From contig OZ241883.1 of assembly GCA_965203445.1 (NCBI GenBank), forward strand, positions 2,240,001 through 2,304,000: DNA of 64,000 bases, in the 5' to 3' direction. Positions 2,818-49,987 of the stretch are shown here, one piece after another (position 1 is the first letter of the stretch; every line of letters begins with the position of its first letter). The notes beneath the pieces are model-generated. The model was not told the DNA's origin and searched no databases. It was given only the letters and a program-made list of their open reading frames with translations. The position numbers were made by a program, and so were the translations under genes. The DNA comes from Candidatus Oxydemutator sp. (GTDB taxonomy: Bacteria; Pseudomonadota; Gammaproteobacteria; Poriferisulfidales; Oxydemutatoraceae).

Positions 2818-4023
2818 TCATTTTTCCCTCATCCCCGCACCTTCTATCACCTCCCTGACCGCCTCCAGTTCCGCGGCTACCGTGCGTATTTTTCCCTGCG
2901 CCTGGCGCATCGCGACGTCCGGGTCTTTCAGGCCGTGGCCGGTCAGCGTGCATACAATGCGGCTGCCGGCCTCGATTTTGCCCGCCTCGACGTCCTTCAG
3001 CAATCCGGCGATAGAGATCGCCGACGCCGGTTCGCAGAATATGCCCTCGCGTTCGGCCAGCATTCGTTGCGCCGCCAGGATCTCCTCGTCGGTGCGGCAA
3101 TCGAACCACCCGCCAGATTCCTGCCCGGCGATCAGCGCCATGTCCCAGCTTTGCGGATTGCCGATGCGGATGGCGGTCGCTATCGTATCCGGGTTCTCGA
3201 CTTTCCTGCCCGACACAATCGGCGCGGCGCCCACGGCCTGGTAGCCCAACATGCGCGGACGGCGGTTCGCCCGGGCGCCGTCGTAGCCGCGCCACGCCGC
3301 GCCCAAGGCTTGCCTGGCCTTGTCCACGCAACCGCTCGGCAGGCGCGCGGCTTCGGAATAGCCCATCCAGTAGGCGGAGATATTGCCGGCGTTGCCGACC
3401 GGCAGGCAGTGGTAGTCGGGTGCGTCGCCCAACGCCTCGACGATCTCGAAGGCGGCGGTCTTCTGGCCCTGCAAGCGGTACGGGTTGACCGAGTTCACGA
3501 GCGTCACCGGCATCTCGGCGGACAGCGTCTTGACCAGTTCCATGCCCTGATCGAAGTTGCCCCGGATCTGGACGACGGCGGCGCCCTCGATGATCGCCTG
3601 CGCGAGTTTGCCCATCGCGATCTTGCCGTCCGGTATCAGCACGAACACGGCGAGGCCGGCGCGCGCCCCGTAGGCCGCGGCCGAGGCCGACGTGTTTCCG
3701 GTCGAGGCGCAGATCAACGCGCGGCTGCCCTCGGCGACGGCCTGGGTCACGGCCACCGTCATGCCGCGATCCTTGAACGAACCGGTCGGGTTCAGGCCCT
3801 CATATTTGACGTGGATTTCCAGCGGCACGCCCAAAGCCGCGGGGATATTGCGAAGGCGGATCAGCGGCGTCGCGCCCTCGCACAGGGACACCGGCGCGGC
3901 GTCGTCCGGCAGCGGCAAGCAATGCCGATAGGCGGAGATCAGGCCGTCGCGTGAACACGTGGTTTCGCCGGGAATCATTTGTAGAAAACAATCAGGGGAG
4001 GAAAAACCATCACCCCAGATCAC
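2818..4023 (-). CDS. thrC: Threonine synthase
   Basis: [32 protein letters not shown]; GTGA overlap with hom stop (alternative ATG at 3978). Confidence 0.95.
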
Positions 4024-37438: not shown

Positions 37439-38203
37439 TTAGCGAACGACTTCGCCGATCCTCGAGAAATCAAAGTGTCCGGCCGCGTAGTCCCAGTGCA
37501 TCCAGACAAAAAAAGCCTTGCCGACGAGGTTGGCTTCGGGCACGAATCCCCAGGCGCGGCTGTCGTTGCTGTTGTCGCGGTTGTCGCCCATGACGAAGTA
37601 GTGGCCGGGTGGCACGCGCCACTGGCGCGGCGGCTGAGTCACCGCCGGCGCCAGCAGCACGTCGTGCTCGGCGCCGGGCAGCGCCTCGGTTTTGCGCCGC
37701 AATTCGATCAGGTGCGACGACGGCGCCGCGGGCGCGACGCTCTCGTGCTGTGCAATCTCGCGGCCGTTGATATAGAGCCGCTTGTCGCGGTACACGAGGT
37801 GATCGCCGGGGGTGCCGATGACGCGCTTGATGTAGTCCTGCGATGCATCGTGCGGATAACGGAAAACGACGACGTCGCCGGTGCGCGGCGCGCCTGCCGG
37901 GATCAATTCGTCGTGCAGGACCGGCAGTCTCAGACCGTAGGTGTACTTGTTGACCAGGATGAAGTCGCCGATTTGCAGCGTCGGCAGCATCGAACCGGAC
38001 GGGATGCGGAAAGGTTCGACGACGAAGCTGCGCAACAGCAGGACGATCAGCAGCACCGGGAAAAACGAGCGTGCCCCGTCCACGATCCAGGCGCCGCGCG
38101 AGGCGCCACGCGCGCGCGCCGGAAACGGCAGGCGCGCGGCCAGCACGACAAGCCCGGTGAGCAGCGTCGCCAACGTCAGGAAAAATTCAAGGTCGAAATG
38201 CAT
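37439..38203 (-). CDS. lepB: Signal peptidase I
   Basis: IPSGSMLPTL, YIKRVIG, MGDNRDNSNDSR. Confidence 0.97.
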   Translation of the reverse strand: MHFDLEFFLTLATLLTGLVVLAARLPFPARARGASRGAWIVDGARSFFPVLLIVLLLRSFVVEPFRIPSGSMLPTLQIGDFILVNKYTYGLRLPVLHDELIPAGAPRTGDVVVFRYPHDASQDYIKRVIGTPGDHLVYRDKRLYINGREIAQHESVAPAAPSSHLIELRRKTEALPGAEHDVLLAPAVTQPPRQWRVPPGHYFVMGDNRDNSNDSRAWGFVPEANLVGKAFFVWMHWDYAAGHFDFSRIGEVVR

Positions 38204-38280
38204 GTGAAACCAGGAACGACGGGGGATAAAACGCGCCCGCAAAAGAAACGCCGCGGGCGTCAAACACGCGCGCATAAAAC

Positions 38281-38398
38281 GCCTGGCGGTGTCCTACTCT
38301 CACACGGGGAGGCCCCGCACTACCATCGGCGATGTGCCGTTTCACTTCCGAGTTCGGAATGGGATCGGGTGGTACCAGCACTCTATGGCCGCCAGGCA
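38281..38398 (-). rRNA. rrf: 5S rRNA, not linked to a 23S gene
   Basis: TGCCTGGCGGCCATAG...CCCATTCCGAACTCGGAAGTGAAAC...CGCCGATGGTAGT...GAGAGTAGG..CCGCCAGGC. Confidence 0.97.
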
Positions 38399-38544
38399 AA
38401 CCGGTTGTCGCGCGCTTCAATGCGTGGTGGCAATCAGATAATCCAGAAAACCCAGTATCGAGAAAAAGATGAGCGGCGAGATCATGTTCTCCGGAGGCGC
38501 TTTCGTCATCGCAATTCTCGTTTCTGGTTGATCGGTAACCGCCG

Positions 38545-38572
38545 ATTATAGCGCATCAAAAAAACATCGCAA
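38545..38572 (-). promoter_or_regulatory. Sigma70 promoter for the 5S rRNA (and possibly the lepB operon)
   Basis: TTGCGA-N16-TATAAT followed by GC-rich CGGCGG. Confidence 0.6.
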
Positions 38573-39109
38573 AACGGGATGTATGGGCTTGTCAAACCGA
38601 AGCACAAATGTCCTATTGTTTCCAAAGCGCAGATGTCCTGTTGTTGGCAGGGCTTAGCGCTTTCATGGTCTCCCCGCCAGCGTCTCCACGGGTGATCCGG
38701 CGCCGGTCTGTGGCCTGAACCGCAGCGCCGCCTGGTTGTCGCCTTATCCACTACAGATGGCAATTGTTTTGCGTCCACTGGCGCCGCCGGTGCCTCGCCC
38801 AGGCGATGCACCTAGTAGGCAGTTCGCGCGTGTTTCAGTTGTTGAGGGATTGGCTATACTGGTGATGCTACGGGAAAGCGATCGCCCTTCGATCCGAGGA
38901 GAAGTTTCAGTTGTTGAGGGACTGGCTATACTGGTGATGCTGCTATCTGCGGGCGCGCGGGCACGGGCAGATCGGGTTTCAGTTGTTGAGGGATTGGCTA
39001 TACTGGTGATGCGCCGCCGCGCGCGAGACCGACGCCGAGGATACCGCATGTTTCAGTTGTTGAGGGATTGGCTATACTGGTGATGCCGAGGGGTACGCGG
39101 GGTAGGCGC

Positions 39110-39137
39110 TTGCGGACGGGCAGGGTTGTGATACACT
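39110..39137 (+). promoter_or_regulatory. Putative sigma70 promoter inside the array insert
   Basis: TTGCGG-N16-TACACT with extended -10 TG. Confidence 0.5.
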
Positions 39138-39143
39138 TCGCCC

Positions 39144-39286
39144 GTCACTCTTTGGGATTGGTTATACTGGTTTGAGGGCGGTGACGCCATCTTCTGCGGG
39201 TGGCGGAACCGATGGCAGAAGATGTGCAAGCGTCAGGAGACCGTCCTCCTCCTGCAATTTAGTAGCCGCCCTCATTCCTTTTGTTT
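39144..39286 (+). ncRNA. Candidate structured small RNA with a degenerate half repeat
   Basis: GGGATTGGTTATACTGGT (17/18 to repeat nt 15-32); stems TGAGGGCGG/CCGCCCTCA, TGACGC/GCGTCA, CATCTTCTGC/GCAGAAGATG; T-rich end. Confidence 0.45.
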
Positions 39287-39604
39287 CGCCCTTTTTCTTT
39301 GGTACAGCAGAATCCCGACGCGGCGCCTGTCAATGTATTCCCACTTCGCGCGCAGCACGGTCACAAACACCGAGCCGTCCTCGTGCTCCTGCGCGACCCC
39401 GAGAATGGGACGCGCCTTGTCCTCGCCTCGGAACACCTTGATATAGTGCCTGCGGTATTCGCCTGGCCACGAATACCAGGCCAGCCACTCCTCGTCGGCA
39501 TCCTTCAGCGTCGGTAAATAGAAGTTTGCGTATCGCTCGCGCCAAGTGCGCCTCCCCTTTTTGCCGACGACGACGTGGGTTGCGCCCCCCCAGCCGAATC
39601 TCAC
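39272..39604 (-). CDS. PBECR2-like RNase toxin domain (phage MuF C-terminal type), standalone or a gene fragment
   Basis: H...K....RERYANFYLPTL...EEW....YRRHYIKVF...DRRRVGILLY; frame stays open to the repeat at 39636. Confidence 0.65.
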   Translation of the reverse strand: MRFGWGGATHVVVGKKGRRTWRERYANFYLPTLKDADEEWLAWYSWPGEYRRHYIKVFRGEDKARPILGVAQEHEDGSVFVTVLRAKWEYIDRRRVGILLYQRKRAKQKE

Positions 39605-42600
39605 GCCCCCGGCGGGCTCTCCCCGCGTTTTGATGGTTTCAGTTGTTGAGGGATTGGCTATACTGGTGATGCGGTCGGCGCCGGTGGCGAACCACCAGAA
39701 CTTGCGGTTTCAGTTGTTGAGGGATTGGCTATACTGGTGATGCCGAAATCCAGGGGCGCGTGCTCGCGCCCGACGACGGGTTTCAGTTGTTGAGGGATTG
39801 GCTATACTGGTGATGCAGAGGTTTCCTTTGCCGAGTTGGACAAGCGTTGGGGTTTCAGTTGTTGAGGGATTGGCTATACTGGTGATGCGCTTGTGCCAAC
39901 GCCTGCGCACGCGGCGCATTGATGTTTCAGTTGTTGAGGGATTGGCTATACTGGTGATGCCTTTTGCTCGACGCCCTGCAACATTTCCACGTTCGTTTCA
40001 GTTGTTGAGGGATTGGCTATACTGGTGATGCCGCAGCGCGCCGAAGTTCCGCAGCACCCACTCCACGTTTCAGTTGTTGAGGGATTGGCTATACTGGTGA
40101 TGCCCGGCGCCGGCAGCGCGAGCGGCGGCAGGTCAATCGTTTCAGTTGTTGAGGGATTGGCTATACTGGTGATGCCGACGACGCGCTCTACGACGCGGAG
40201 CTTCATGAGTTTCAGTTGTTGAGGGATTGGCTATACTGGTGATGCGATCGCGCAGATGCCGAAGGCCGACATCTATGGCGTTTCAGTTGTTGAGGGATTG
40301 GCTATACTGGTGATGCCGCAAGGTCAAGACTTCCGCGGCGCATAGCCGACGCCAGGCGCATAGCCGACACGGCTATACTGGTGATGCCGCAAGGTCAAGA
40401 CTTCCGCCCCAGGTTTGTGGATGTTTCAGTTGTTGAGGGATTGGCTATACTGGTGATGCTGTTTGGTGTTGTCGAGCGCGGTGGCAGAACTGGTGTTTCA
40501 GTTGTTGAGGGATTGGCTATACTGGTGATGCATACCCGCCCGGCCAATACCACTATATCCCCGGGTAGTTTCAGTTGTTGAGGGATTGGCTATACTGGTG
40601 ATGCGTCAAGTATGGGCGTTCGACGGCCTCCAGCCTATGTTTCAGTTGTTGAGGGATTGGCTATACTGGTGATGCACGGCGCAGGGGAAAACGCGCCTGA
40701 GGTTATGCCGTGTTTCAGTTGTTGAGGGATTGGCTATACTGGTGATGCGGCGCGCTGACTTTGTTCTTGGTCACCTTCGCGGTTTCAGTTGTTGAGGGAT
40801 TGGCTATACTGGTGATGCTCTCACAAACAGTCTGGCCGCGTTTCACATCCCAGTTTCAGTTGTTGAGGGATTGGCTATACTGGTGATGCCGCGTTGGCCG
40901 ACACCGCCGCGCGTGTGCTCGGCAGTTTCAGTTGTTGAGGGATTGGCTATACTGGTGATGCTGATGAAGGCGATTGTGGACATGAGGCCGGCGCCGTTTC
41001 AGTTGTTGAGGGATTGGCTATACTGGTGATGGCCGCGACTGGCGATCAATGCGTGGCGGGGAAGCCGCGTTTCAGTTGTTGAGGGATTGGCTATACTGGT
41101 GATGCTGGGTGTTCGCCAAATCGAAATACGCGGTCAACGCAGTTTCAGTTGTTGAGGGATTGGCTATACTGGTGATGCGAAGTGATCCGCAAGTTCCCCG
41201 CGCACATGACAAGTTTCAGTTGTTGAGGGATTGGCTATACTGGTGATGCCTCCAGCATGGCTTTCTGTTTCGAGTCCAGCCCGCGTTTCAGTTGTTGAGG
41301 GATTGGCTATACTGGTGATGCAGCTCTACACCTCCGTCGTGGCAAATAATGTCCGGAGTTTCAGTTGTTGAGGGATTGGCTATACTGGTGATGCTCCCGT
41401 GCGCGTTCCGCTGGTCGAAAAGAGGCGGCGTTTCAGTTGTTGAGGGATTGGCTATACTGGTGATGCTGTCGTACACGAGCGACGACGGCGACAAGTTTTA
41501 TCGTTTCAGTTGTTGAGGGATTGGCTATACTGGTGATGCATCCCGACTCGTCCGGCAGTCTTTGGGCTCAGGGGTTTCAGTTGTTGAGGGATTGGCTATA
41601 CTGGTGATGCTGCGCTCGGATGGCTGGCGGCGTCGAAGGTCTTGACGTTTCAGTTGTTGAGGGATTGGCTATACTGGTGATGCGCGGGAGGTGATGACGG
41701 CCCTTTCCGAAAACGTGTAGTTTCAGTTGTTGAGGGATTGGCTATACTGGTGATGCATAAAGCAAGGTGTTGATGAGACTATTAGTTTCGGGTTTCAGTT
41801 GTTGAGGGATTGGCTATACTGGTGATGCAATCTCGAAGTGGACATCGCCGACCTGCTGAACGAGCAGTTTCAGTTGTTGAGGGATTGGCTATACTGGTGA
41901 TGCCGTAGCCGCACAAAGATTAAACAGAAAATGGATGTTTCAGTTGTTGAGGGATTGGCTATACTGGTGATGCCGGCGCCGACCCCGCCCCCGGATCCCG
42001 TCCGCGACCGTTTCAGTTGTTGAGGGATTGGCTATACTGGTGATGCGCTGGACCTTCTGCACGAGGCGGCGGTCGGCGCAGGTTTCAGTTGTTGAGGGAT
42101 TGGCTATACTGGTGATGCGTGATGCGCGCTCTTGACCTCTTCTGCGGCGTCGGGTTTCAGTTGTTGAGGGATTGGCTATACTGGTGATGCTTAGAAGTGA
42201 AACAATTATGGTTCGAGGACGCCAGTTTCAGTTGTTGAGGGATTGGCTATACTGGTGATGCGGACGGCACGGCAATCAGAATAAAAGACGTACCGAGTTT
42301 CAGTTGTTGAGGGATTGGCTATACTGGTGATGCCGGTGATAGAGAGAATCAAGAGGGAGGAAAAGTGAGTTTCAGTTGTTGAGGGATTGGCTATACTGGT
42401 GATGCGGCACGTTTGCAGGCACGACCTTGTCGGCGGCACGTTTCAGTTGTTGAGGGATTGGCTATACTGGTGATGCGCGGCTACGCCGTTCGGCCAGGGC
42501 ACCAGGGTCTGTTTCAGTTGTTGAGGGATTGGCTATACTGGTGATGCCGGGGCCGCCGCCGACGTTCCCTTTGTCTCAACAAGTTTCAGTTGTTGAGGGA

Positions 42601-42694
42601 TTGGCTATACTGGTGATGCAGAAAGGCACGCAGAGTTCAGAGATGCTTATCGCAGTTTCAGTTGTTGAGGGATTGGCTATACTGGTGATGCCCC

Positions 42695-42727
42695 ATCCCA
42701 AGCCCTTGTTTTACAAGGGCTTGGGAT
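42695..42727. repeat. Perfect 15-bp inverted repeat right after the last CRISPR repeat (leader element or array terminator)
   Basis: ATCCCAAGCCCTTGT-TTT-ACAAGGGCTTGGGAT. Confidence 0.8.
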
Positions 42728-42784
42728 ATTTCACAGGGGGCAGAATTTTCGCAAGTAGAGCTATTGCACCAAAGCACGGCGAAT

Positions 42785-42812
42785 TTGCGAAAAGTAACGA
42801 TTGTGCTACGAT
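42785..42812 (+). promoter_or_regulatory. Promoter of tracrRNA-1
   Basis: TTGCGA-N16-TACGAT with extended -10 TG, just before the anti-repeat. Confidence 0.6.
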
Positions 42813-42818
42813 CATGAC

Positions 42819-42946
42819 TCCAGTATAGCCAATTCTTGATACTCTGTAATCATAAAAAAGTATCTTGAACGGACCTCTGCATTTTTGCACGTCTGCCTTC
42901 ACTCGATGAAGGATTAAGAAACCGCCTCCGGGCGGTTTCTTTTTTT
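42819..42946 (+). ncRNA. tracrRNA-1, Francisella II-B-type scaffold
   Basis: Anti-repeat CCAGTATAGCCAATTCTTGATACTCTG, then TAATCATAAAAAAGTATCTTGAACGGACCTCTG...CACGTCTG, close to the F. novicida tracrRNA as recalled. Confidence 0.9.
42916..42946 (+). terminator. Intrinsic terminator of tracrRNA-1, possibly also serving cas4
   Basis: AAGAAACCGCC-TCCG-GGCGGTTTCTT-TTTTT. Confidence 0.85.
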
Positions 42947-42953
42947 CCGACTC

Positions 42954-43547
42954 TCACAATCGGTCATTACAAAAATTCACGTATTCGCAGGTGCAGCACT
43001 GGGCGACCGTCGCACTCGATTCCGGCTTCAGTCCACGCCGCAGCATCCGCCTGATTTTATCCGCCACCTCTGCAACCAGCCGACGCTTGTCCGCGTCAAT
43101 GTCAATCGTATGCAGAACCTTCCCTTTCCCGACCAAGAATCCGGCCGTGCTCGGCTTGGAAAAATGCTCCTCTAACAGCAAGGCATAAGCCGCCAGTTGC
43201 AGTTGGTCGCCGCGCTTCCCGCGGTTTGCGGAAAGCTTGAACTCGACGGCGTACACCGCCTCGTCGGTTTCCACCGCCATGTCCGCGATGCCATGCAGTC
43301 CCAACGCATCGCTGCGCACCGCCAGATTGTGATGGGTTTTCCCGCTCCGCAAATTGAATCTGGAGAGATTGCGACGCTGCCATAATTTTTCCTCTGCCCG
43401 GTGGAAGTGCTCTCCCTGCCCGACCCAGACGGGGCGATGAAAAGCAACATCGGTCAACTCCATGTAATACACGACCCGCGGGCAGTAGCACCACTGCCGG
43501 ATTAAATTTACCGGAATGCTATATGGCAAGGGTTTCCTCCCAATCAT
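42954..43547 (-). CDS. cas4: CRISPR-associated Cas4
   Basis: RQWCYCPR, HGIAD, VEFK, QLAAYA, CCTCEYVNFC Fe-S cysteines. Confidence 0.95.
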   Translation of the reverse strand: MIGRKPLPYSIPVNLIRQWCYCPRVVYYMELTDVAFHRPVWVGQGEHFHRAEEKLWQRRNLSRFNLRSGKTHHNLAVRSDALGLHGIADMAVETDEAVYAVEFKLSANRGKRGDQLQLAAYALLLEEHFSKPSTAGFLVGKGKVLHTIDIDADKRRLVAEVADKIRRMLRRGLKPESSATVAQCCTCEYVNFCNDRL

Positions 43548-43821
43548 GGAAATCGCTCTTTTCGTGGCCGACAAAATAACTCCGCCCCCGCCCGTTGAAG
43601 TTGGTATGCGTAATAAATGCCTTGTCCGCCTGCCCCAGGCTATCGTGCAGGTAGCGTTTAATCGCCTCCAGCTCCGCCAGCGTCAGATACCCCCAAAACA
43701 CCGACTTCTGCACGGCTCTGAGCCCGTGCTTCCCCAACTCCATAAAAACGCGGGCGCGCGTTTTATTGTCTTCCACGTCGTAGCTGACCAGATACTCCTG
43801 CCGCAATGGATAATTCTTCAT
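43519..43821 (-). CDS. cas2: CRISPR-associated Cas2
   Basis: YLVSYDVEDNKTR, VQKSVFWG. Confidence 0.95.
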   Translation of the reverse strand: MKNYPLRQEYLVSYDVEDNKTRARVFMELGKHGLRAVQKSVFWGYLTLAELEAIKRYLHDSLGQADKAFITHTNFNGRGRSYFVGHEKSDFHDWEETLAI

Positions 43822-43830
43822 GCCGCCAAA

Positions 43831-44787
43831 TCACCACTTGAACAAATAAGGCCGATAGTTTTGCTCGCCGTAGAAATGACCGCACAAACGATAAACTTGG
43901 CGCTGGATAATATGTTCCAATTTGTGCTTCTTTCTGCGATACGTGTATTTCTTGGCGCACGTTTTCTGTATTTCCCCTATCAACGCCTTCTTCAGGGCGA
44001 CATCCAGAACCGTTCGCCCCTCGCTGCGGGAGCGCAACTTGACTACGGCGCGATCAACCACCCACGCGCGGTATTCTTCCATGACGTCGAGCACCAGCGC
44101 CATTTTCCCCGGCCGCCGGACGTGCATGACGCCGAGATAAGGCTCCAGCCCGGCGTTGATAATCGCGCTCAGGATATAACTGCTCAACACCGCGTAACCG
44201 AGATTGAGCATGGCGTTGTTGATTTCCCCGCTTCCCCGCCCCTCGCGCCTCGTGAACGAAGCCGAAAACAGCCGCGCTTGCCGCAAACCCTGAAAATAGG
44301 CATTGGCGCCGGCACCCTCGAAACCGAGCAAGGTCTCGAGGTCTCTCGCGTGTGGCGCCTTGTCCGCGTGTGCCCGCAATTCATCGGCGGCGGAGCGCAG
44401 AAACGGATGCCTGTGATATTTGTCGAGATGGTTCAGCACGGCGCGCTGATTTTTCAGTTTTGCGACGACGATCCTCCGCGCCAGCGGCATCGTGTCGCGC
44501 TGGCAAAAAGCCATCTGCGCCTGGCGCACCGCCACCACACCGTGTTGCGACTGTCCCAAAATCGCCGAGTGTGCGACACCGCGAAAATCCAAAAAAAATA
44601 ACTTGATGCCGCGGCTGCTGAAAGCCTCGATCAGATCGCTCGATATGCTGACGCCGCGTTTGGCGATGGAGACGGTGCACAGGCGATTGAGCGGATAGTG
44701 CCTGCTTTCTCCATCCTGCCTGACCACCAAGCGATGGCTGTTCAGCCCCAAAAAAGCCCCATAGTCGCCGATGACAAGGTGTTTCAT
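43831..44787 (-). CDS. cas1: CRISPR-associated Cas1, II-B type
   Basis: MKHLVIGDYGAFLGL...GIKLFFLDFRG, GFEGAGA..YF, NAMLNLGYAVL, GLEPYLGVMH, LDVMEEYR. Confidence 0.96.
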   Translation of the reverse strand: MKHLVIGDYGAFLGLNSHRLVVRQDGESRHYPLNRLCTVSIAKRGVSISSDLIEAFSSRGIKLFFLDFRGVAHSAILGQSQHGVVAVRQAQMAFCQRDTMPLARRIVVAKLKNQRAVLNHLDKYHRHPFLRSAADELRAHADKAPHARDLETLLGFEGAGANAYFQGLRQARLFSASFTRREGRGSGEINNAMLNLGYAVLSSYILSAIINAGLEPYLGVMHVRRPGKMALVLDVMEEYRAWVVDRAVVKLRSRSEGRTVLDVALKKALIGEIQKTCAKKYTYRRKKHKLEHIIQRQVYRLCGHFYGEQNYRPYLFKW

Positions 44788-44880: not shown

Positions 44881-45123
44881 ATGACCAAAGAAAACATCGG
44901 ATCTTACGAGGCGAAAACGAAGCTGCCCGAACTGTTGAGGCGGGTGCAGGCGGGCGAGGCCTTTACGATAACCAGACGTGGCAAGCCCATAGCGGACCTG
45001 CTGCCCAGCCAGGCCGGGGCGCGACAAAAGACGGCGGCCGCCATTGACAACATCGCTGCCATGGGCAAACGGACGGTCTCCGAGCGTCGCCTGAAAGAAT
45101 ATAGAGACAAAGGCCGCGAGTGA
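44881..45123 (+). CDS. Phd/YefM family antitoxin
   Basis: IGSYEAKTKLPELLRRVQAGEAFTITRRGKPIADL. Confidence 0.92.
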   Translation: MTKENIGSYEAKTKLPELLRRVQAGEAFTITRRGKPIADLLPSQAGARQKTAAAIDNIAAMGKRTVSERRLKEYRDKGRE

Positions 45124-45545
45124 CGACCTTCGTGCTGGATAATTCAGTGGCAATGCGTTGGCTGCTCGCAACTCCCAGCCCTTCGGGGCAGAAGTATGCC
45201 GGGAAGGTCCTGCAAAGCATGAAAGACGCGGACGCGCTCGTGCCCGCGCTCTGGCACCTCGAAGCGGCCAATGTCCTGCTCCACGCCGAAAGAGACGGCC
45301 AGATAACGACCGGCCAGGCACAAGCGTTTGTCTCACAACTGAAAAATCTGCCCATTACGATTGATTCACCGACCCAGACAAATTCGGTCGACCGAATTAT
45401 GGCGCTGGCTCGGTCATACAACCTCAGCAGTTACGACGCCGCCTATCTGGAGATTGCCACCCGCAATTCGGTACGGCTCGCCACCCTGGACAGATCGCTG
45501 GCAAAAGCAGCGAGGAAAGCGGGAGTAGGTATCTATCTGAAATAA
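45120..45545 (+). CDS. vapC: VapC PIN-domain toxin
   Basis: FVLDNSV, WHLEAANVL, LSSYDAAYLE, LATLD; GTGA overlap with the antitoxin. Confidence 0.92.
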   Translation: MTTFVLDNSVAMRWLLATPSPSGQKYAGKVLQSMKDADALVPALWHLEAANVLLHAERDGQITTGQAQAFVSQLKNLPITIDSPTQTNSVDRIMALARSYNLSSYDAAYLEIATRNSVRLATLDRSLAKAARKAGVGIYLK

Positions 45546-45561
45546 GAAAGCACCAGTGTGC

Positions 45562-45828
45562 TCAAGTAGTCTTCGCCTTCAGCGGGAACCGCGCAGGATT
45601 TCGGATGATTTCTCTGCTCAGATCAACGTCTATCATCGGCCAGTAATAATGATCCGCAGATAATTGCTCCACTTTAAGGATCGCCTCAACGGGCTGCCCC
45701 TTGAACCAGGGAAAATCCTCGTAGGACAGAAATAACTCCTCATCATGTGCAAGCAGCCATATACCGTGGGTAGATATATGGGTAACTTCAACTTCTGAAG
45801 TAGTCTTTCCAGGCATTGATGAGTTCAT
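45562..45828 (-). CDS. DUF2442 family protein
   Basis: THISTHGIWLL...ELFLSYEDFPWF...WPMIDVDLS..P.RFPL; ATGA overlap with the cas9 stop. Confidence 0.85.
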   Translation of the reverse strand: MNSSMPGKTTSEVEVTHISTHGIWLLAHDEELFLSYEDFPWFKGQPVEAILKVEQLSADHYYWPMIDVDLSREIIRNPARFPLKAKTT

Positions 45829-48800
45829 TGTGATGGTTCTCTATAGATTTCCAATTCCTTATAACCTATCTCAGTTTCTTCCATCGTTTCATCATCCCTA
45901 AGTGTTGCTCGGGGACCCAGTTTGGTGATAGCCCACGGCCCACTTTTCCCATCAATACGAACCCTATCACCCCGTTTGAATATTTTGAGTATTTTATAAT
46001 TCACTGGAAGTTCTTTATCTATTTCATTTCTTTCATAAACTGGCTGAGACTTATCCTTCCAATAAAACTTATTCGTAATACGAACAGCATCTATTTTATC
46101 TTTTCCATCTTTATTATATTGAATAACCATAACTTTATCCCAAGAAACCGTCCGTCTAAAGTGATGCATGCCTTTTGTATTTTTATCTTTTCTTCGCCAC
46201 ATCTGTTGAACTCCCATGCCCCCTCGGACACCAGGACCCACCCTTACGCAACGAACTGACCGTGTATTCTTGGGGTGTAAAATATGCTCCTGGGGCAGCC
46301 TCAGAAAATAAGAATGCGTAATTGTTCTCTTATCACCGCTTCCATTTGTCATTTCTTTTTTTCTGTCATCCGGCATATCATCGATTTTTTCCCATGCTTT
46401 TTCCATTGCCATCCTGATAGGCTCGGACTGTATATTCCCGATATTCTTTTTTTGAATCTTCTCCAACGGTTTTCTTTGTGTAATCATGCCGTCCAAACAA
46501 CGCAAAGGTTCAGTATCCGTTTTGCTGCATTCGATCTTTCCTTCATTTCTCTTGTCTTCAACATACCAACCCGAAGATTTATCGGGAGCCAACAAATTCC
46601 CTCTGCCGTCTTCTCTTAGATTGATAAAAGCAGGGGCATTTTCCTTCCTTGCCTGCTTACGAACATCACTATTCAAGCGTTTGATCGCTTCCCAATCTAC
46701 ATTTGCTGCCAAGACCACAGCATCAAGGGCATGGTGGAACTCTCTGATGGGATCATCTTTCGCTGGCTCAACAATCACCTTAAACCTTTTCACGGCAATT
46801 TTGGTCTTTATCATAACTTTGATATTCGAGATCTCCCCCGTACTTTTGTCTACAACTTCCACATCGCACCATGGTACATATTTACCATTACCTCTTTTCC
46901 TGTAACACTTCTTCAGTGTCCCAACCAATTTATTACCCTTGACAGATAGCCAATCATTACCTGCTTCCTCATCATTCTTACGATATTTAAGCTTTACAGA
47001 AGCATTAGCACCTTCCAACAATTTACTTAGTTTTTTATCCTTTGAGAAAACATCTTCCAATAACAACTCTAATTCTTGATCAAGCTGTCCTTTTGTCTCA
47101 TAGAGAGTTTCATCTTTCTTTTTTCCACTCGTTTTGCCTTCCTTTACTACTTCAAGGACGAAGTTTTTATTGTTACAGTTCTCTAACCAAAACTGGTTTG
47201 TCCCTACTGCATTATCATCCGGAGTCCCGACAAGCATCACTTTCCCATTATTTTTGTCCGTTCGAATTTCCAGCCAGTCAGTTACCCCTTCATCATAGTC
47301 TTTACAGATAGAAACCTCCCCATCAAATAAATACTCATCCAACTTCAGCTTTGAAAGTTCATATTTGAATTCTTCACCTGCCTTTGTTTTGTATGGATTC
47401 CTAAATCGTATAGCCCGCTTCTGCCGATCCATAAACGGAAACCAGAACCGACGAAGATAAATTGAATCACCTGAACGTATTTTGTGAATCACCTCTGATG
47501 GCAAGTTAAATTCATCCATAAAAGCCTGTTTCAAGAGTTTCGCCCCGAACATGGTGTGCTGTGGGGCAGCAAGCATATCCTCAGGCAGTCTCCTGTCTGC
47601 CTCCAAACGGGATTGAATGAATTTGTGCTTCTCAGGATTATTATTCTCAATCAAAGAAAGGACATTCTTATCCAGAGGCTCCCTCCGGTTGTGCTTATCA
47701 ATATTGCAAATTGAATGACCGATTACTTTATTCCGGGCAATATTTCCCCCACCTTTTGATTTAGGGAACAGATGATCAATATGAGCGTCACTATGCAAAA
47801 ACTCACCACAAAATATGCAACGGCCACCTTGATCCGCCCTAAGCGTGGCCATATCCCCACCCGCCGACTGTTGATACTGTTTCGGCTTGAGCTTCTTCTT
47901 CAGCTTCTTACCTTCACTCTGAGCCAGAGCACTGATATCAAAACGCGCTGTCTCTATACCTACATGTTCAATAGGTATCGGCGAATTTCTGAGGTCTCGT
48001 ACCTCCTGCTCCTTCAACATCTTGCGCACAACAACAGTGATTTTTTCAACTTTCTGCCGTATTGAGGGTGGCGCGTCATCTTTCAATGTTAAAACACGCT
48101 CTTCATGAAGCCTCGCCCATGAATTGCCCTTGGTTTCATCGCGCTCCAAAAGGTTCAGTTTTTGTTCCAGGTGCTTAATACAAAAACCTGCTCTGCCGGG
48201 CTGTTCCCCACAAATAATATCCCTGAGAATATCTTTCTTGCCTCTCGCCTCGTTCTCTGCGGGGAGAACATAGCGATTTCCCCTACTGTTAGTAAAAAAT
48301 TGATTAATAGTTTCCTGATTTTTATTTTTGATAACTCCGTCTAGTTCTTTCACAAACTCCAAACTATTCATCAACTTCTGTATTTCACTCTCATCCAACT
48401 TGTCTTTATTCCCATTGGCACGCCTCACATTCATTTGACGCAACTCAATTTCAAACTGAAGTCTGCGAACGTCTTTCCTGCGCTTTTTAGGGAGATTAAG
48501 TCCGCAACGTGTTCCATCATCGTCAGTAGCTGCCGGGCATTTGCCCATGCTATTGCGGTTGTTGAATCTTTTCTTGCGATATTCACGATTGACTACCTTT
48601 GTTGCTGCCTTAATCCATCGCTTTTTTATTTCTGTAGGGGTAGTACCTGCTCTATGAGCGATTTCACTGGCCTTATTATGAACATCCGCCATTGATTGTT
48701 GCCAATCCTGTTTTATTTTGGCCATAGACAAGATCTGTCTGTTCTGATTGACTTTGCTTTTCTTCAAACCCTGGAAGGTTTCATCCAGGCAAATTTGAAA

Positions 48801-49790
48801 GCGATCCTGCTCCAAGCCACAGGCGACTTTCATCAGGTTTTCCAACCCGCTTAGCATTTCCTCACGATGGCGATTACGATGTGGACGATAAACTTTGCCT
48901 TCCTCAAAAAGCTTCTCACCTGTTTGTAGGCCAAGCATAGTCATAATGCGAGTAACAATTTCTTCTTCCTGAGGTATGGTACTTCCAGCCCCATAGACCA
49001 AACCAAGGCGTTCTTTGATCCAGCTCTTTATATCCTCTGGCACAGCATCTTGAAGTTTTATTTCCAGTGCCTCATAAACCACTTCCTGCCTGGCAAGCTC
49101 CTCCATGACTGAAGAATCTTTTTCGGCTTTTTTTCTGAGATCGTGAATCTCTTTAGCTTTCTCATAAAGCTCACCCAGGCAGCTCCGTTCCTCTTTTATT
49201 TTTATAAAGGAAACAGTTTTGTCAGAAAATTTTTGAGACTCACTATGCCTTGAACGCCTGTTGAATTCTTGTCTTGCGTTGTCTTGGGCTTGTTTGTATT
49301 CCTCGTCTGATTCATTCTTGTATTTCCTACGCCCTTTCTCGTTAAATTCCGCGGGCGCATTAAATTCCTGAAGAAGAATCCTGTCAACTTCTTTAACTAT
49401 TAGAGGGCATTTAGGAGATTTACCATCATCAGTTTTGACAACGAGCAATTCAAGCAAGCTCGCATAGTCCCATCCACGATAATGGGCTAGCGCATAAAGG
49501 CGGTTTCCAAGAGAAGCCTTATCTCTCTCAGTCTGTTTCTCCCCCGGTTTCGCATTTCTTGGCTCCAACCCCATGCCTTTAAGAAGCGCATAGAAGTCGC
49601 GTAGCCGCCTCGCCTTGGAAAGTTTCCGCCTGCGTTGTCCCCTGTTGACGCGACGTTTTTGGAGAGTATCCGATAGCGTAGTGCGATGTTTGAGAACTTT
49701 ATAATCCAGGACTTCATTACTTGAACTCAACAAGCCAACGCCTGTATATGCGTAACCGAAGTCAATCCCTAATCTGAAGGACTTATTCAT
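45825..49790 (-). CDS. cas9: Divergent Cas9, 1321 aa
   Basis: RuvC-I LGIDFG, Arg-rich bridge helix, RuvC-II GIETARF, HNH CIFCG..HIDHLFPKS..N..HSICN, RuvC-III HHALDAVVLA; start at MNKSF with AGGTGG RBS. Confidence 0.93.
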   Translation of the reverse strand: MNKSFRLGIDFGYAYTGVGLLSSSNEVLDYKVLKHRTTLSDTLQKRRVNRGQRRRKLSKARRLRDFYALLKGMGLEPRNAKPGEKQTERDKASLGNRLYALAHYRGWDYASLLELLVVKTDDGKSPKCPLIVKEVDRILLQEFNAPAEFNEKGRRKYKNESDEEYKQAQDNARQEFNRRSRHSESQKFSDKTVSFIKIKEERSCLGELYEKAKEIHDLRKKAEKDSSVMEELARQEVVYEALEIKLQDAVPEDIKSWIKERLGLVYGAGSTIPQEEEIVTRIMTMLGLQTGEKLFEEGKVYRPHRNRHREEMLSGLENLMKVACGLEQDRFQICLDETFQGLKKSKVNQNRQILSMAKIKQDWQQSMADVHNKASEIAHRAGTTPTEIKKRWIKAATKVVNREYRKKRFNNRNSMGKCPAATDDDGTRCGLNLPKKRRKDVRRLQFEIELRQMNVRRANGNKDKLDESEIQKLMNSLEFVKELDGVIKNKNQETINQFFTNSRGNRYVLPAENEARGKKDILRDIICGEQPGRAGFCIKHLEQKLNLLERDETKGNSWARLHEERVLTLKDDAPPSIRQKVEKITVVVRKMLKEQEVRDLRNSPIPIEHVGIETARFDISALAQSEGKKLKKKLKPKQYQQSAGGDMATLRADQGGRCIFCGEFLHSDAHIDHLFPKSKGGGNIARNKVIGHSICNIDKHNRREPLDKNVLSLIENNNPEKHKFIQSRLEADRRLPEDMLAAPQHTMFGAKLLKQAFMDEFNLPSEVIHKIRSGDSIYLRRFWFPFMDRQKRAIRFRNPYKTKAGEEFKYELSKLKLDEYLFDGEVSICKDYDEGVTDWLEIRTDKNNGKVMLVGTPDDNAVGTNQFWLENCNNKNFVLEVVKEGKTSGKKKDETLYETKGQLDQELELLLEDVFSKDKKLSKLLEGANASVKLKYRKNDEEAGNDWLSVKGNKLVGTLKKCYRKRGNGKYVPWCDVEVVDKSTGEISNIKVMIKTKIAVKRFKVIVEPAKDDPIREFHHALDAVVLAANVDWEAIKRLNSDVRKQARKENAPAFINLREDGRGNLLAPDKSSGWYVEDKRNEGKIECSKTDTEPLRCLDGMITQRKPLEKIQKKNIGNIQSEPIRMAMEKAWEKIDDMPDDRKKEMTNGSGDKRTITHSYFLRLPQEHILHPKNTRSVRCVRVGPGVRGGMGVQQMWRRKDKNTKGMHHFRRTVSWDKVMVIQYNKDGKDKIDAVRITNKFYWKDKSQPVYERNEIDKELPVNYKILKIFKRGDRVRIDGKSGPWAITKLGPRATLRDDETMEETEIGYKELEIYREPSQ

Positions 49791-49803
49791 AACCCACCTG
49801 AAT

Positions 49804-49939
49804 GTAAAACAATACCCTGCATAAAGCAGGGTATTGTAGATTTTGCTCGCCCTCAAGCGGTGACTTACTGAAAACAGAGCATCGCCTGCAAAAAACGATG
49901 GTGCCAGCAAGCACCTCGGACTTTTTTCAGTTGTTGAGG
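49804..49939 (-). ncRNA. tracrRNA-2 candidate, non-Francisella scaffold
   Basis: CCTCAACAACTGAAA is the perfect complement of repeat nt 2-16; hairpins GGTGC/GCACC, CATCG/CGATG, GCTTG/CGAGC; 12-bp terminal hairpin. Confidence 0.7.
49805..49837 (-). terminator. Terminator-like hairpin between tracrRNA-2 and cas9
   Basis: ACAATACCCTGC-TTTAT-GCAGGGTATTGT-TTTA. Confidence 0.7.
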
Positions 49940-49943
49940 CCTG

Positions 49944-49971
49944 ATTGTAACGACGAAGAAAAAACTGTCAA
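49944..49971 (-). promoter_or_regulatory. Near-consensus sigma70 promoter for tracrRNA-2/cas9
   Basis: TTGACA-N16-TACAAT; predicted start site falls within the anti-repeat. Confidence 0.75.
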
Positions 49972-49987
49972 GCCCTGATGTGTTGTT

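Follow-up and report, generated by a model that had tools for sequence, protein, structure and literature searches.

[quoted passage not shown] The scaRNA of Francisella novicida and of its predicted relatives is an array-oriented, repeat-like segment with its own promoter-like and terminator-like signals and with complementarity to the anti-repeat (PMC6199352; bioRxiv 10.64898/2026.06.01.729453; PMC12231574), and both scaRNA and tracr-L are described as guiding Cas9. The criteria given by Feussner et al. for scaRNA searches ask for a repeat-like piece of at least 20 nt with more than 80% identity, in which the first repeat nucleotide is included (bioRxiv 10.64898/2026.06.01.729453). Lone repeat-derived pieces that have their own promoter, lie beside phage genes and compete with crRNA have been reported as solitary repeat units (SRUs) or RNA anti-CRISPRs (Racrs) and as viral scaRNAs and mini-arrays (PMC10651486; Shmakov et al. 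preprint). Racrs mimic the repeats of CRISPR arrays (PMC10651486), and viral sgRNAs sequester Cas9. Arrays can also receive phage DNA: phages of the PhiAP1.1 type in Streptococcus pyogenes integrate into type II-A repeats via a repeat-like attP, and spacer-repeat units are deleted, duplicated and transferred (bioRxiv 10.1101/2020.10.09.333658). In CreTA (CRISPR-repressed toxin-antitoxin) and in the cargo-regulating mini-arrays, as far as these have been described, a repeat-derived RNA is found beside a toxin-type gene in a CRISPR locus. The toxin gene of a CreTA module has a promoter of its own that the effector represses, and the spacer of a repeat-spacer-repeat RNA partly matches this promoter.

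The window analysed here (the whole 64,000-nt stretch of DNA from Candidatus Oxydemutator sp.) contains a type II-B CRISPR-Cas9 locus that resembles each of these systems in some respect. One spacer slot of its array is filled by a block of 549 bp, of which the left third is a half-repeat unit and the right two thirds are a cut-off phage gene. This left third is tentatively read as a solitary-repeat small RNA unit of scaRNA-like or SRU-like build, which would act only by binding the tracrRNA, either as a decoy or as a modulator. That reading is ranked first; nearly as likely, the block is an inert scar, i.e. a remnant of phage DNA in the array. In that case the half repeat would be debris from a junction or an att site, and neither the promoter-like site nor the fold would serve an RNA.

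The CRISPR-Cas locus

The genes cas9, cas1, cas2 and cas4 and a tracrRNA gene are all present in the locus, whose main features are the following.

38832-42690, + strand: CRISPR array with 46 copies of a 37-nt repeat
42785-42947, + strand: tracrRNA gene, with a promoter-like site at 42785-42812, the anti-repeat from 42820 and an end made of a hairpin and a T run
42954-43574, - strand: cas4 (Pfam; TIGR00372 match)
43519-43821, - strand: cas2 (Pfam)
43831-44787, - strand: cas1 (Pfam)
45825-49910, - strand: Cas9-like ORF of 1321-1361 aa (NCBIfam Cas9d and IscB models, scores below the cut-offs)

Between cas9 and cas1 there are a Phd/PIN pair and a DUF2442 gene, according to Pfam. The anti-repeat of the tracrRNA gene, from 42820, reads CCAGTATAGCCAAT, and the body of this tracrRNA resembles the Rfam family of the Francisella sRNA FtrA with E = 0.0035, a match below the gathering score. 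The pairing of the full repeat with the tracrRNA consists of a short lower stem (repeat nt 1-7), an internal loop and then a long upper helix. A second anti-repeat (tracr-2) is found upstream of cas9 and is complementary only to nt 1-16 of the repeat.

The G+C content of cas9 and of the tracrRNA gene is 42%, compared with 63.6% for the genome, and no relative of this cas9 was found in any of 400 other genomes of the phylum, so the CRISPR-Cas island has probably been acquired horizontally; cas9 had no match among plasmids either. On its left the array directly adjoins a repeat that is dispersed in the genome and has 9 other matches of 83-90% identity. When the array was compared with phage and plasmid collections no protospacer was found, and the PAM had to be assumed in all scans for guide targets: it was taken as NGG, the PAM of the Francisella enzyme.

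A 549-bp block in a spacer slot

The block lies exactly between two perfect repeats.

39050-39086, + strand: intact repeat, the fourth of 46, left border of the block (0 mismatches over the 36-nt pattern; the same 37-mer as 39636-39672)
39087-39635, no strand assigned: non-array block of 549 bp that fills one spacer slot
39636-39672, + strand: intact repeat, right border of the block and first repeat of the 42-repeat main array

When the array is parsed with a 36-nt repeat, 43 spacers measure 34-39 nt and two units are aberrant, namely the block and the unit at 40316-40422, in which the start of a spacer is duplicated and a further repeat is present only in part (40364-40380). This second rearranged unit bears on both of the leading explanations, since it supports an inert scar and speaks against a functional small RNA by showing that scars of rearrangement with pieces of repeat arise in this very array. 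A scar is also favoured by the dispersed repeat that adjoins the array on its left.

The block is unlikely to have been created during assembly. A Logan contig of 607 nt spans 39058-39664 without differences, at a depth of 26 versus 25 in the flank, and this repeat-to-repeat continuity at chromosomal depth rules out an assembly artefact, with the proviso that the sequencing run may be the sample from which the assembly itself was made. In a run from another study (X3), there is a contig of 151 nt, with a depth of 2.3, in which the last 39 nt on the right of the block and the repeat are connected to unlike sequence, so a related strain may have lost the intact block. Such variation between strains would suit a scar, and it counts against a maintained RNA unit.

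Related to the origin of the block, its G+C content is 60-64% (64% in the region of the promoter-like site and 60% in the fold). These values match the spacers (63%) and the genome and differ from the 42% of the RNA gene of the island, which favours a foreign, G+C-rich origin for the whole block. The half-repeat unit is set in G+C-rich DNA of phage type and not, as the type II-B scaRNAs, in an A+T-rich CRISPR island. By gene content and composition the block is phage-like, yet it is chromosomal: Racrs differ from this unit, whose copy sits in the array of a host chromosome and for which no phage copy was found in the collections scanned.

Several routes could have left an inert scar: a crossover at one or two spacers, the aberrant integration of a long fragment, or the decay of a prophage that had entered a repeat by means of an att core copying part of it. 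When 35-36 nt at the left end of the block are counted as an ordinary spacer, they are followed by AGG or GGG, a motif of NGG type (the PAM of this Cas9 being assumed); this fits contiguous phage DNA that recombined into the array through its spacers. None of the spacers in either array of this genome matched the block. Integration of the PhiAP1.1 type is a described precedent for temperate phages inside type II-A repeats (bioRxiv 10.1101/2020.10.09.333658), and the likeness extends to phage DNA inside a type II array and bounded by repeats, to identity with part of the repeat and to rearranged spacer-repeat units. The differences are the following: only 549 bp remain, there is no integrase inside the block, both flanking repeats are whole, and the identity covers 18 nt with one mismatch as against the 8 bp reported there. 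The lack of an integrase also weighs against the block being the remnant of an integration.

Whatever becomes of the RNA, the block is a clean case of about 0.5 kb of phage DNA placed exactly in a spacer slot with intact repeats on both sides, and it bears on recombination between arrays and phages. Should the block be a scar, it would serve as a practical warning: the debris in an array may include promoter-like sites, pieces of repeat and strong folds, and a neighbouring ORF with a toxin domain may be a gene fragment.

The cut-off MuF-PBECR2 gene

39272-39635, - strand: 3' fragment of a phage gene for a MuF-PBECR2 protein (117 codons that align, followed by the stop), cut off at the repeat edge

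Phage MuF proteins that carry a toxin domain at the C-terminus are known as polyvalent or polymorphic toxins. The ORF in the block has the PBECR2 domain (PF18810, E = 5.2e-12, 46.5 bits against a Pfam cut-off of 27.1) that is found at the C-terminus of Phage_Mu_F proteins, and it keeps all the invariant residues of the family; the N-terminal Phage_Mu_F domain, of about 300 residues, is absent from it. The reading frame is open to 39640, i.e. up to and into the repeat, and its 117 residues align without gaps, with 74 identities, to the segment 309-425 of P0003. P0003 is a protein of 425 aa in which Phage_Mu_F is followed by PBECR2, and its MuF part matches, at about 40%, the F genes for head morphogenesis in Mu-like phages of Pseudomonas. 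The alignment starts within a few codons of the repeat edge. The open frame and the residues covered in P0003 therefore identify the ORF, on sequence grounds, as the last 117 codons of a phage head-protein/nuclease gene of about 425 codons that was cut at the repeat, and not as a stand-alone gene with a start region of its own. Long proteins with the domain at the extreme C-terminus occur elsewhere in the family: about 50 of the 143 homologues found with HMMER (hand count of the table) are of this kind and have 280-470 aa, and among 22 metagenome loci there are 11 with an open frame of 400 aa or more.

The original prediction described the half-repeat unit as convergent on a toxin ORF and offered an RNA antitoxin as one of its possible roles. 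The convergence with a PBECR2 domain stands, but the antitoxin has lost its partner, which turns out to be a promoter-less fragment of 117 codons; for this reason a toxin-antitoxin pair is unlikely. In its full form this explanation states that the + strand RNA, or read-through transcription antisense to the PBECR2 ORF, blocks the expression of an active stand-alone nuclease of 110 aa that starts at GTG 39604, and it is hardly probable. Family members of about 100 aa do exist on their own (P0004 with 104 aa, P0005 with 99 aa, P0008 with 108 aa and P0016 with 112 aa), so expression from GTG 39604 may be possible, and nothing argues for it. The conserved invariant residues, the convergent orientation with 3' overlap and the lack of an immunity ORF after the PBECR2 ORF are also in line with such a pair. 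Nevertheless, the MuF homology runs upstream of this GTG as far as the repeat edge, so the start is accidental; the standard scan gave no promoter-like site upstream of the ORF on the - strand, where the space is occupied by the CRISPR repeat; and the overlap would amount to merely 3-29 nt if the RNA stopped at the U-rich tract described below. The gene fragment is plainly non-functional debris, as would be expected if the whole block were an inert scar. CreTA, as described, differs in the same respects: here the toxin is a promoter-less fragment, there is one partial repeat, the sequence adjacent to it has no promoter match and the system is type II instead of type I. Neither the ORF on the - strand at 39053-39229 nor two ORFs on the + strand had a Pfam hit.

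The half repeat and its predicted pairing with the tracrRNA

39154-39171, + strand: half repeat, corresponding to repeat positions 15-32 (17/18 match)

The half repeat reads GGGATTGGTTATACTGGT and has non-repeat DNA on either side. Its match of 17/18 is as originally predicted, and the expectation for matches with up to 3 mismatches is 0.01 in the window. The sole difference, C to T, was proposed to keep pairing with tracr-1, the tracrRNA at 42820, as G-U, and the calculation agrees: the half repeat and the 5' end of the tracrRNA form a duplex of 17 bp with -25.0 kcal/mol, as compared to -27.4 for the segment of the true repeat and to -9.8 +/- 2.2 (best -20.2) for 500 shuffled 18-mers. It was likewise correct that the unit could barely pair with tracr-2, a poor partner because it complements only repeat nt 1-16, which the unit lacks but for two positions. 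The predicted partner of the half-repeat unit is consequently the tracrRNA of 42785-42947.

The ends of the half repeat are the ends of the continuous upper helix between repeat and tracrRNA. This coincidence, together with a change that is compatible with G-U pairing, counts in favour of an RNA unit that would bind the tracrRNA. Besides, co-folding of the candidate RNA with the tracrRNA yields a gain of 14.8 kcal/mol; the predicted pairs involve the tracrRNA 5' end and do not disturb the stem junction, which is another point for the tracrRNA-binding reading. If the block were an inert scar formed by phage integration, the half repeat should be part of a junction; flanked as it is by non-repeat DNA on both sides, it is of neither attL nor attR type and resembles an attP instead.

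The part of the repeat that lies next to the guide (nt 1-14, which contains the lower stem) is missing, with only 2 of 14 positions matching in that register. Since the piece is the half that forms the upper helix and is without the guide-adjacent part that Cas9 needs, tracrRNA binding is the sole activity that can be predicted for it. The unit differs here from the type II-B scaRNAs, because it has the distal half of the repeat only, does not include the lower-stem part and shows neither a guide nor a target that could be recognised. It also differs from the Racrs as described in PMC10651486: only the tracrRNA-pairing half is present, positions 15-32 of 37, and the target would be the tracrRNA and not a Cas protein.

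These observations also bear on the idea, present in the original prediction, of a scaRNA-like RNA, which in its guiding form would take Cas9, together with the tracrRNA, to a target with a partial match and silence that target without cutting it. The layout does resemble that of the type II-B scaRNAs in position, direction, putative signals of its own and complementarity to the tracrRNA. The unit shares the + strand with all 46 repeats and precedes the main array of 42 repeats, with 4 repeats further upstream; this placement, comparable with that of the repeat-like units in the type II-B loci of PMC6199352, also supports an RNA unit that would only bind the tracrRNA. On the other side, the piece is 18 nt long, covers positions 15-32 and does not include the first repeat nucleotide, and therefore falls outside the criteria of the 2026 preprint (bioRxiv 10.64898/2026.06.01.729453). 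The 9-14 nt that precede the half repeat have no second match in the genome with an adjacent NGG, the PAM being assumed, and the 8-mer likewise has no other site flanked by NGG. With no target for a short guide, a guiding scaRNA is the least probable of all the explanations considered. A mimic built like a single-guide RNA was also considered and rejected: compared in the same sense with the tracrRNA scaffold, the RNA showed no similarity, with a local score of 14 against a mean of 15.2 for shuffled sequences.

The promoter-like site

39110-39137, + strand: promoter-like site TTGCGG-N16-TACACT with TGn (TTGCGG at 39110-39115, TACACT at 39132-39137), recognised from sequence only

The original prediction gave this site as TTGCGG-N16-TGaTACACT. 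The site is present, but the TGa was counted twice, since the 16-nt spacer already ends in it; 7 of the 12 consensus positions agree, and a standard promoter scan did not call the site. Transcription would presumably start from here. A loose definition of sigma-70 sites (TTG, a spacer of 16-18 nt, TGn and a -10 element with at least 4/6 matches including A2 and T6), drafted after the site had been seen and hence post hoc, is satisfied by 130 sites on both strands of the 2.38-Mb genome with its 64% G+C, or 0.027 per kb per strand. The + strand of 38000-43500 contains no more than two of them, one 16 nt upstream of the half repeat and the other 7 nt upstream of the anti-repeat of the tracrRNA.

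The sites at 39110-39137 and 42785-42812 are identical in 18 of 28 positions and have in common TTGCG, TTGTG, TAC, the final T and the same spacing. Because 30 other genomic sites reach at least 18/28 identity to the site of the tracrRNA, the identity itself is without weight, and only the location and the kind of shared positions carry weight. The motif TTGCG-N10-12-TTGTG-N-TA-N3-T occurs twice in the genome, counting both strands, at 39110 and at 42785, whereas about 0.06 occurrences are expected from the base composition, a figure that has to be read as post hoc given that the motif was built from these same two sites. This pair, with one copy in front of the tracrRNA, is counted in favour of an RNA unit that would bind the tracrRNA; the 7/12 score, the silence of the standard scan and the 30 genomic sites that equal or beat 18/28 are counted against it.

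A third promoter-like site of the window, at 38572 on the - strand, has TTGCGA, so TTGCG may simply be a common -35 form here.

The fold and the U-rich tract

39173-39274, + strand: multi-stem fold closed by a G+C-rich stem of 9 bp
39275-39300, + strand only: U-rich tract after the closing stem; the opposite strand codes for the Lys/Arg-rich tail of the ORF

The multi-stem fold that had been proposed downstream of the half repeat contains two perfect inverted repeats at the expected places, 39173-39181/39266-39274 (9/9 bp) and 39188-39197/39215-39224 (10/10 bp). The RNA of 39144-39300 folds with -60.6 kcal/mol, as against -46.8 +/- 3.6 for 200 shuffled sequences, none of which was as good (z = -3.88). 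For the region 39172-39290, z is -4.26 on the + strand and -3.09 on the - strand (100 shuffles). The proposed overlap of the 3' end with the ORF is likewise real, the stop codon at 39272-39274 (- strand) being located in the 3' arm of the closing stem. Neither a tRNA nor a tmRNA was detected at the fold by ARAGORN, and Rfam gave no family in 39050-39350 at E <= 10.

Transcription may terminate at the U-rich tract. The terminator scan did not call it, since the "loop" would have 84 nt, and a multi-branched fold of 102 nt is atypical as an intrinsic terminator. The fold and the tract are evidence on two sides. The perfect stems, the z values of -3.9 to -4.3 on the + strand versus -3.1 on the - strand and a U tract on the + strand only support a structured RNA that binds the tracrRNA, but the fold is unlike an intrinsic terminator and the U tract is the antisense of Lys/Arg codons. 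For an inert scar, a rare promoter-like site 16 nt upstream on the right strand, ends that match those of the helix and perfect stems with z around -4 are together more than is expected of a random scar.

The same elements could be seen as the start of the main array: the site at 39110 would drive the pre-crRNA of the 42 downstream units, and the half repeat and the fold would be its 5' leader, perhaps a regulated attenuator. Co-transcription of scaRNA and array has been proposed for the type II-B loci of PMC6199352, what flanks the array on the left is a dispersed repeat with no recognisable leader, and in the loose scan the site is the sole promoter-like one on the + strand between this flank and the tracrRNA. 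In spite of this, a leader role is very unlikely: most transcripts would probably be halted by the closing stem and the U tract, the fold is separated from the first repeat by 335 nt of phage gene in antisense, and the repeats may have their own -10-like element, TATACT, as read from the sequence.

A candidate RNA that would bind the tracrRNA

To return to the reading ranked first, the proposed unit would comprise, in order, a promoter in the style of the tracrRNA gene, about 10 nt of 5' sequence, the repeat piece of 18 nt, the stem junction of about 100 nt and a U-rich tail. If made, the candidate RNA would bind the 5' anti-repeat of the tracrRNA in competition with the repeats of the pre-crRNA, and the binding would generate a double-stranded stretch of the kind that is cut by RNase III. 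Any effect on the tracrRNA is a prediction from this pairing. One objection concerns numbers: there is one such site against 46 full repeats, and it would matter only if the RNA far exceeded the pre-crRNA. Moreover, no homologous locus was found among the relatives searched.

Provided that the RNA exists, it would regulate or inhibit the system as a repeat-derived molecule directed at the tracrRNA itself, which is not among the points of attack of the known repeat-derived RNAs considered here. An extension of this idea, which is unlikely, is that the 549-bp block is the fossil of a phage that carried, beside its MuF head gene, a promoter-driven "anti-tracr" RNA anti-CRISPR aimed at the tracrRNA and not at a Cas protein. 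This RNA would consist of the upper-helix half of the host repeat and a stem junction that stabilises it, and the piece would have entered a spacer slot of the array, perhaps through recombination at two adjacent spacers derived from the same phage. The host would then have archived a weapon of its enemy, possibly one that is still active.

Relatives of the block and of its gene

The searches with the protein of the ORF gave distant relatives. A protein word-index search at near length returned only the protein of the window itself, and for longer proteins it returned P0003 (63%) and P0145 (58%), both on short contigs. The best of the 143 HMMER hits, after the protein itself, has 64% identity. 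Scans of the genome collection and of IMG/VR with P0003 or P0001 gave no close relative. A metagenome scan with an alignment of 10 sequences revealed the 22 loci mentioned above, with 30-47% identity, and 14 of 400 other genomes of the phylum have a match to the ORF, with 44% identity at most.

At the level of DNA, the block had no match in the phage collection, and none of 40 relatives contained it (0/40), save for one hit of 25 nt. The 185 nt beyond the stop codon were compared with 26 loci by blastn; the best E value, 0.015, corresponds to the 18-mer match of L006 itself. With nhmmer, the downstream regions of the homologues gave nothing at E <= 10. When 21 of these regions were folded, 3 had z values of -2.8 or below on the sense strand and none reached -4.26. 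Since these relatives are too distant (30-47%), the null result downstream of the homologues does not count against the RNA.

Exact scans of IMG/VR with the half-repeat/stem junction, with the 10-bp stem pair and with one spacer were all without match. The pattern of the half repeat had one match in IMG/VR, in L006, where it reads as coding sequence; with an 18-mer that includes one two-fold position, chance is a plausible origin for this match. The head of the repeat (22 nt) gave one solitary hit in the genome collection, located outside any array.

Phage DNA at CRISPR repeats in other sequences

The phage-type DNA that occupies one spacer slot of the window array (the block, 39087-39635) is not the only stretch of its kind found beside a CRISPR repeat. 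In a metagenome contig (L012, positions 2875-3609) a truncated PBECR2 ORF lacking the MuF part and a phage virion-morphogenesis ORF represented by its 5' part (Pfam Phage_tail_S, a weak match at E = 0.0026 that stays below the cut-off) continue directly into the first of the 37 repeats of an array with I-E-like repeats. An integrase-core (rve) match adjoining them is also weak (E = 0.0033, below the cut-off). The same arrangement is present in two further loci, L011 and L014. L012 is a second instance of the phage region seen in the block bordering a CRISPR repeat.

The right end of the block is also found in X3, a sequencing run from another study, where a contig of 151 nt (depth 2.3) carries the final 39 nt of the block followed by 26 nt of repeat (39597-39661); the 86 nt 5' of the block end have no match on the window. 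This run also contains the spacer 39889-39923 with its flanking repeats, and the contig may derive from a related strain with a different left part at the block position.

The own genome encodes a 383-aa protein (L003 1126-2277, at about 1440885-1442036) whose MuF-like part matches at 60% residues 2-235 of P0003, the 425-aa MuF+PBECR2 homologue of the block ORF; it has an unrelated N-terminal region ahead of that part and no PBECR2 domain. As for the 22-nt repeat head, its sole exact match in the genome collection (L041 536-557, in a contig labelled Akkermansia muciniphila MAG) is solitary, with no array, and the chance expectation for such exact matches is roughly estimated at 0.07.

Left edge and internal structure of the window array

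The 240 nt at 38590-38829, which end 2 nt before the first repeat, are part of a dispersed repeat that has 9 other matches elsewhere in the genome (83-90% identity), and no leader was recognisable on the left side of the array. Beyond them lie:

38572-38545, - strand, promoter-like site TTGCGA-N16-TATAAT, with the 5S rRNA gene
38281-38396, - strand, 5S rRNA gene, 435 nt from the array

Across the array the spacer G+C drops from left to right, from 0.69 to about 0.5-0.6 (rho = -0.27, p = 0.08). Within it, 40316-40422 is an aberrant unit in which the first 20 nt of one spacer are present twice, the two copies being separated by a 14-nt tandem duplication and by a piece of the repeat (its positions 21-37). 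These duplications and the partial repeat are evidence for slippage or rearrangement within the array.

Other CRISPR arrays of the genome

Outside the window, a long array whose repeats resemble type I-E occupies about 138.4-143.3 kb of the genome, and some 115 nt past its end there is a small array:

143427-143536 of the genome, - strand, orphan mini-array, two diverged repeats of II-B type separated by a 35-nt spacer

In an ungapped comparison its repeats match the II-B repeat at 30/37 and 24/37 positions, both retaining TTGGCTATACTGGTGA; no target was found for its spacer. The II-B spacer 39961-39994 shares an overlap of 23 identical nt, in the opposite orientation, with one of the spacers in the I-E-like array (138431-138453 of the genome); one stretch of an invader was sampled by both of these CRISPR systems of the cell.

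Surroundings of cas9

The element that the original prediction named 'tracr-2' corresponds to 49790-49975 on the - strand, with the following promoter:

within 49790-49975, - strand, upstream of cas9, strong predicted promoter TTGACA-N17-TACAAT

The predicted transcript begins CCTCAACAACTGAAA, perfectly complementary to nt 2-16 of the repeat; the + strand opposite this anti-repeat (49924-49939) reads TTTTCAGTTGTTGAGG. Towards its 3' side follow a hairpin with U6, another degenerate stretch resembling the repeat (GTTTTCAGT...TTGAGGG) and the cas9 start, likely the ATG near 49790. No PAM-flanked target (NGG assumed) for adjoining sequence was found in the genome. The element may be a second RNA with an anti-repeat, or it may act as a leader of cas9 that senses crRNA.

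Between cas9 and cas1 there are additional genes:

within 44881-45828, + strand, inserted Phd/YefM-PIN toxin-antitoxin pair
within 44881-45828, DUF2442 gene, along with this pair
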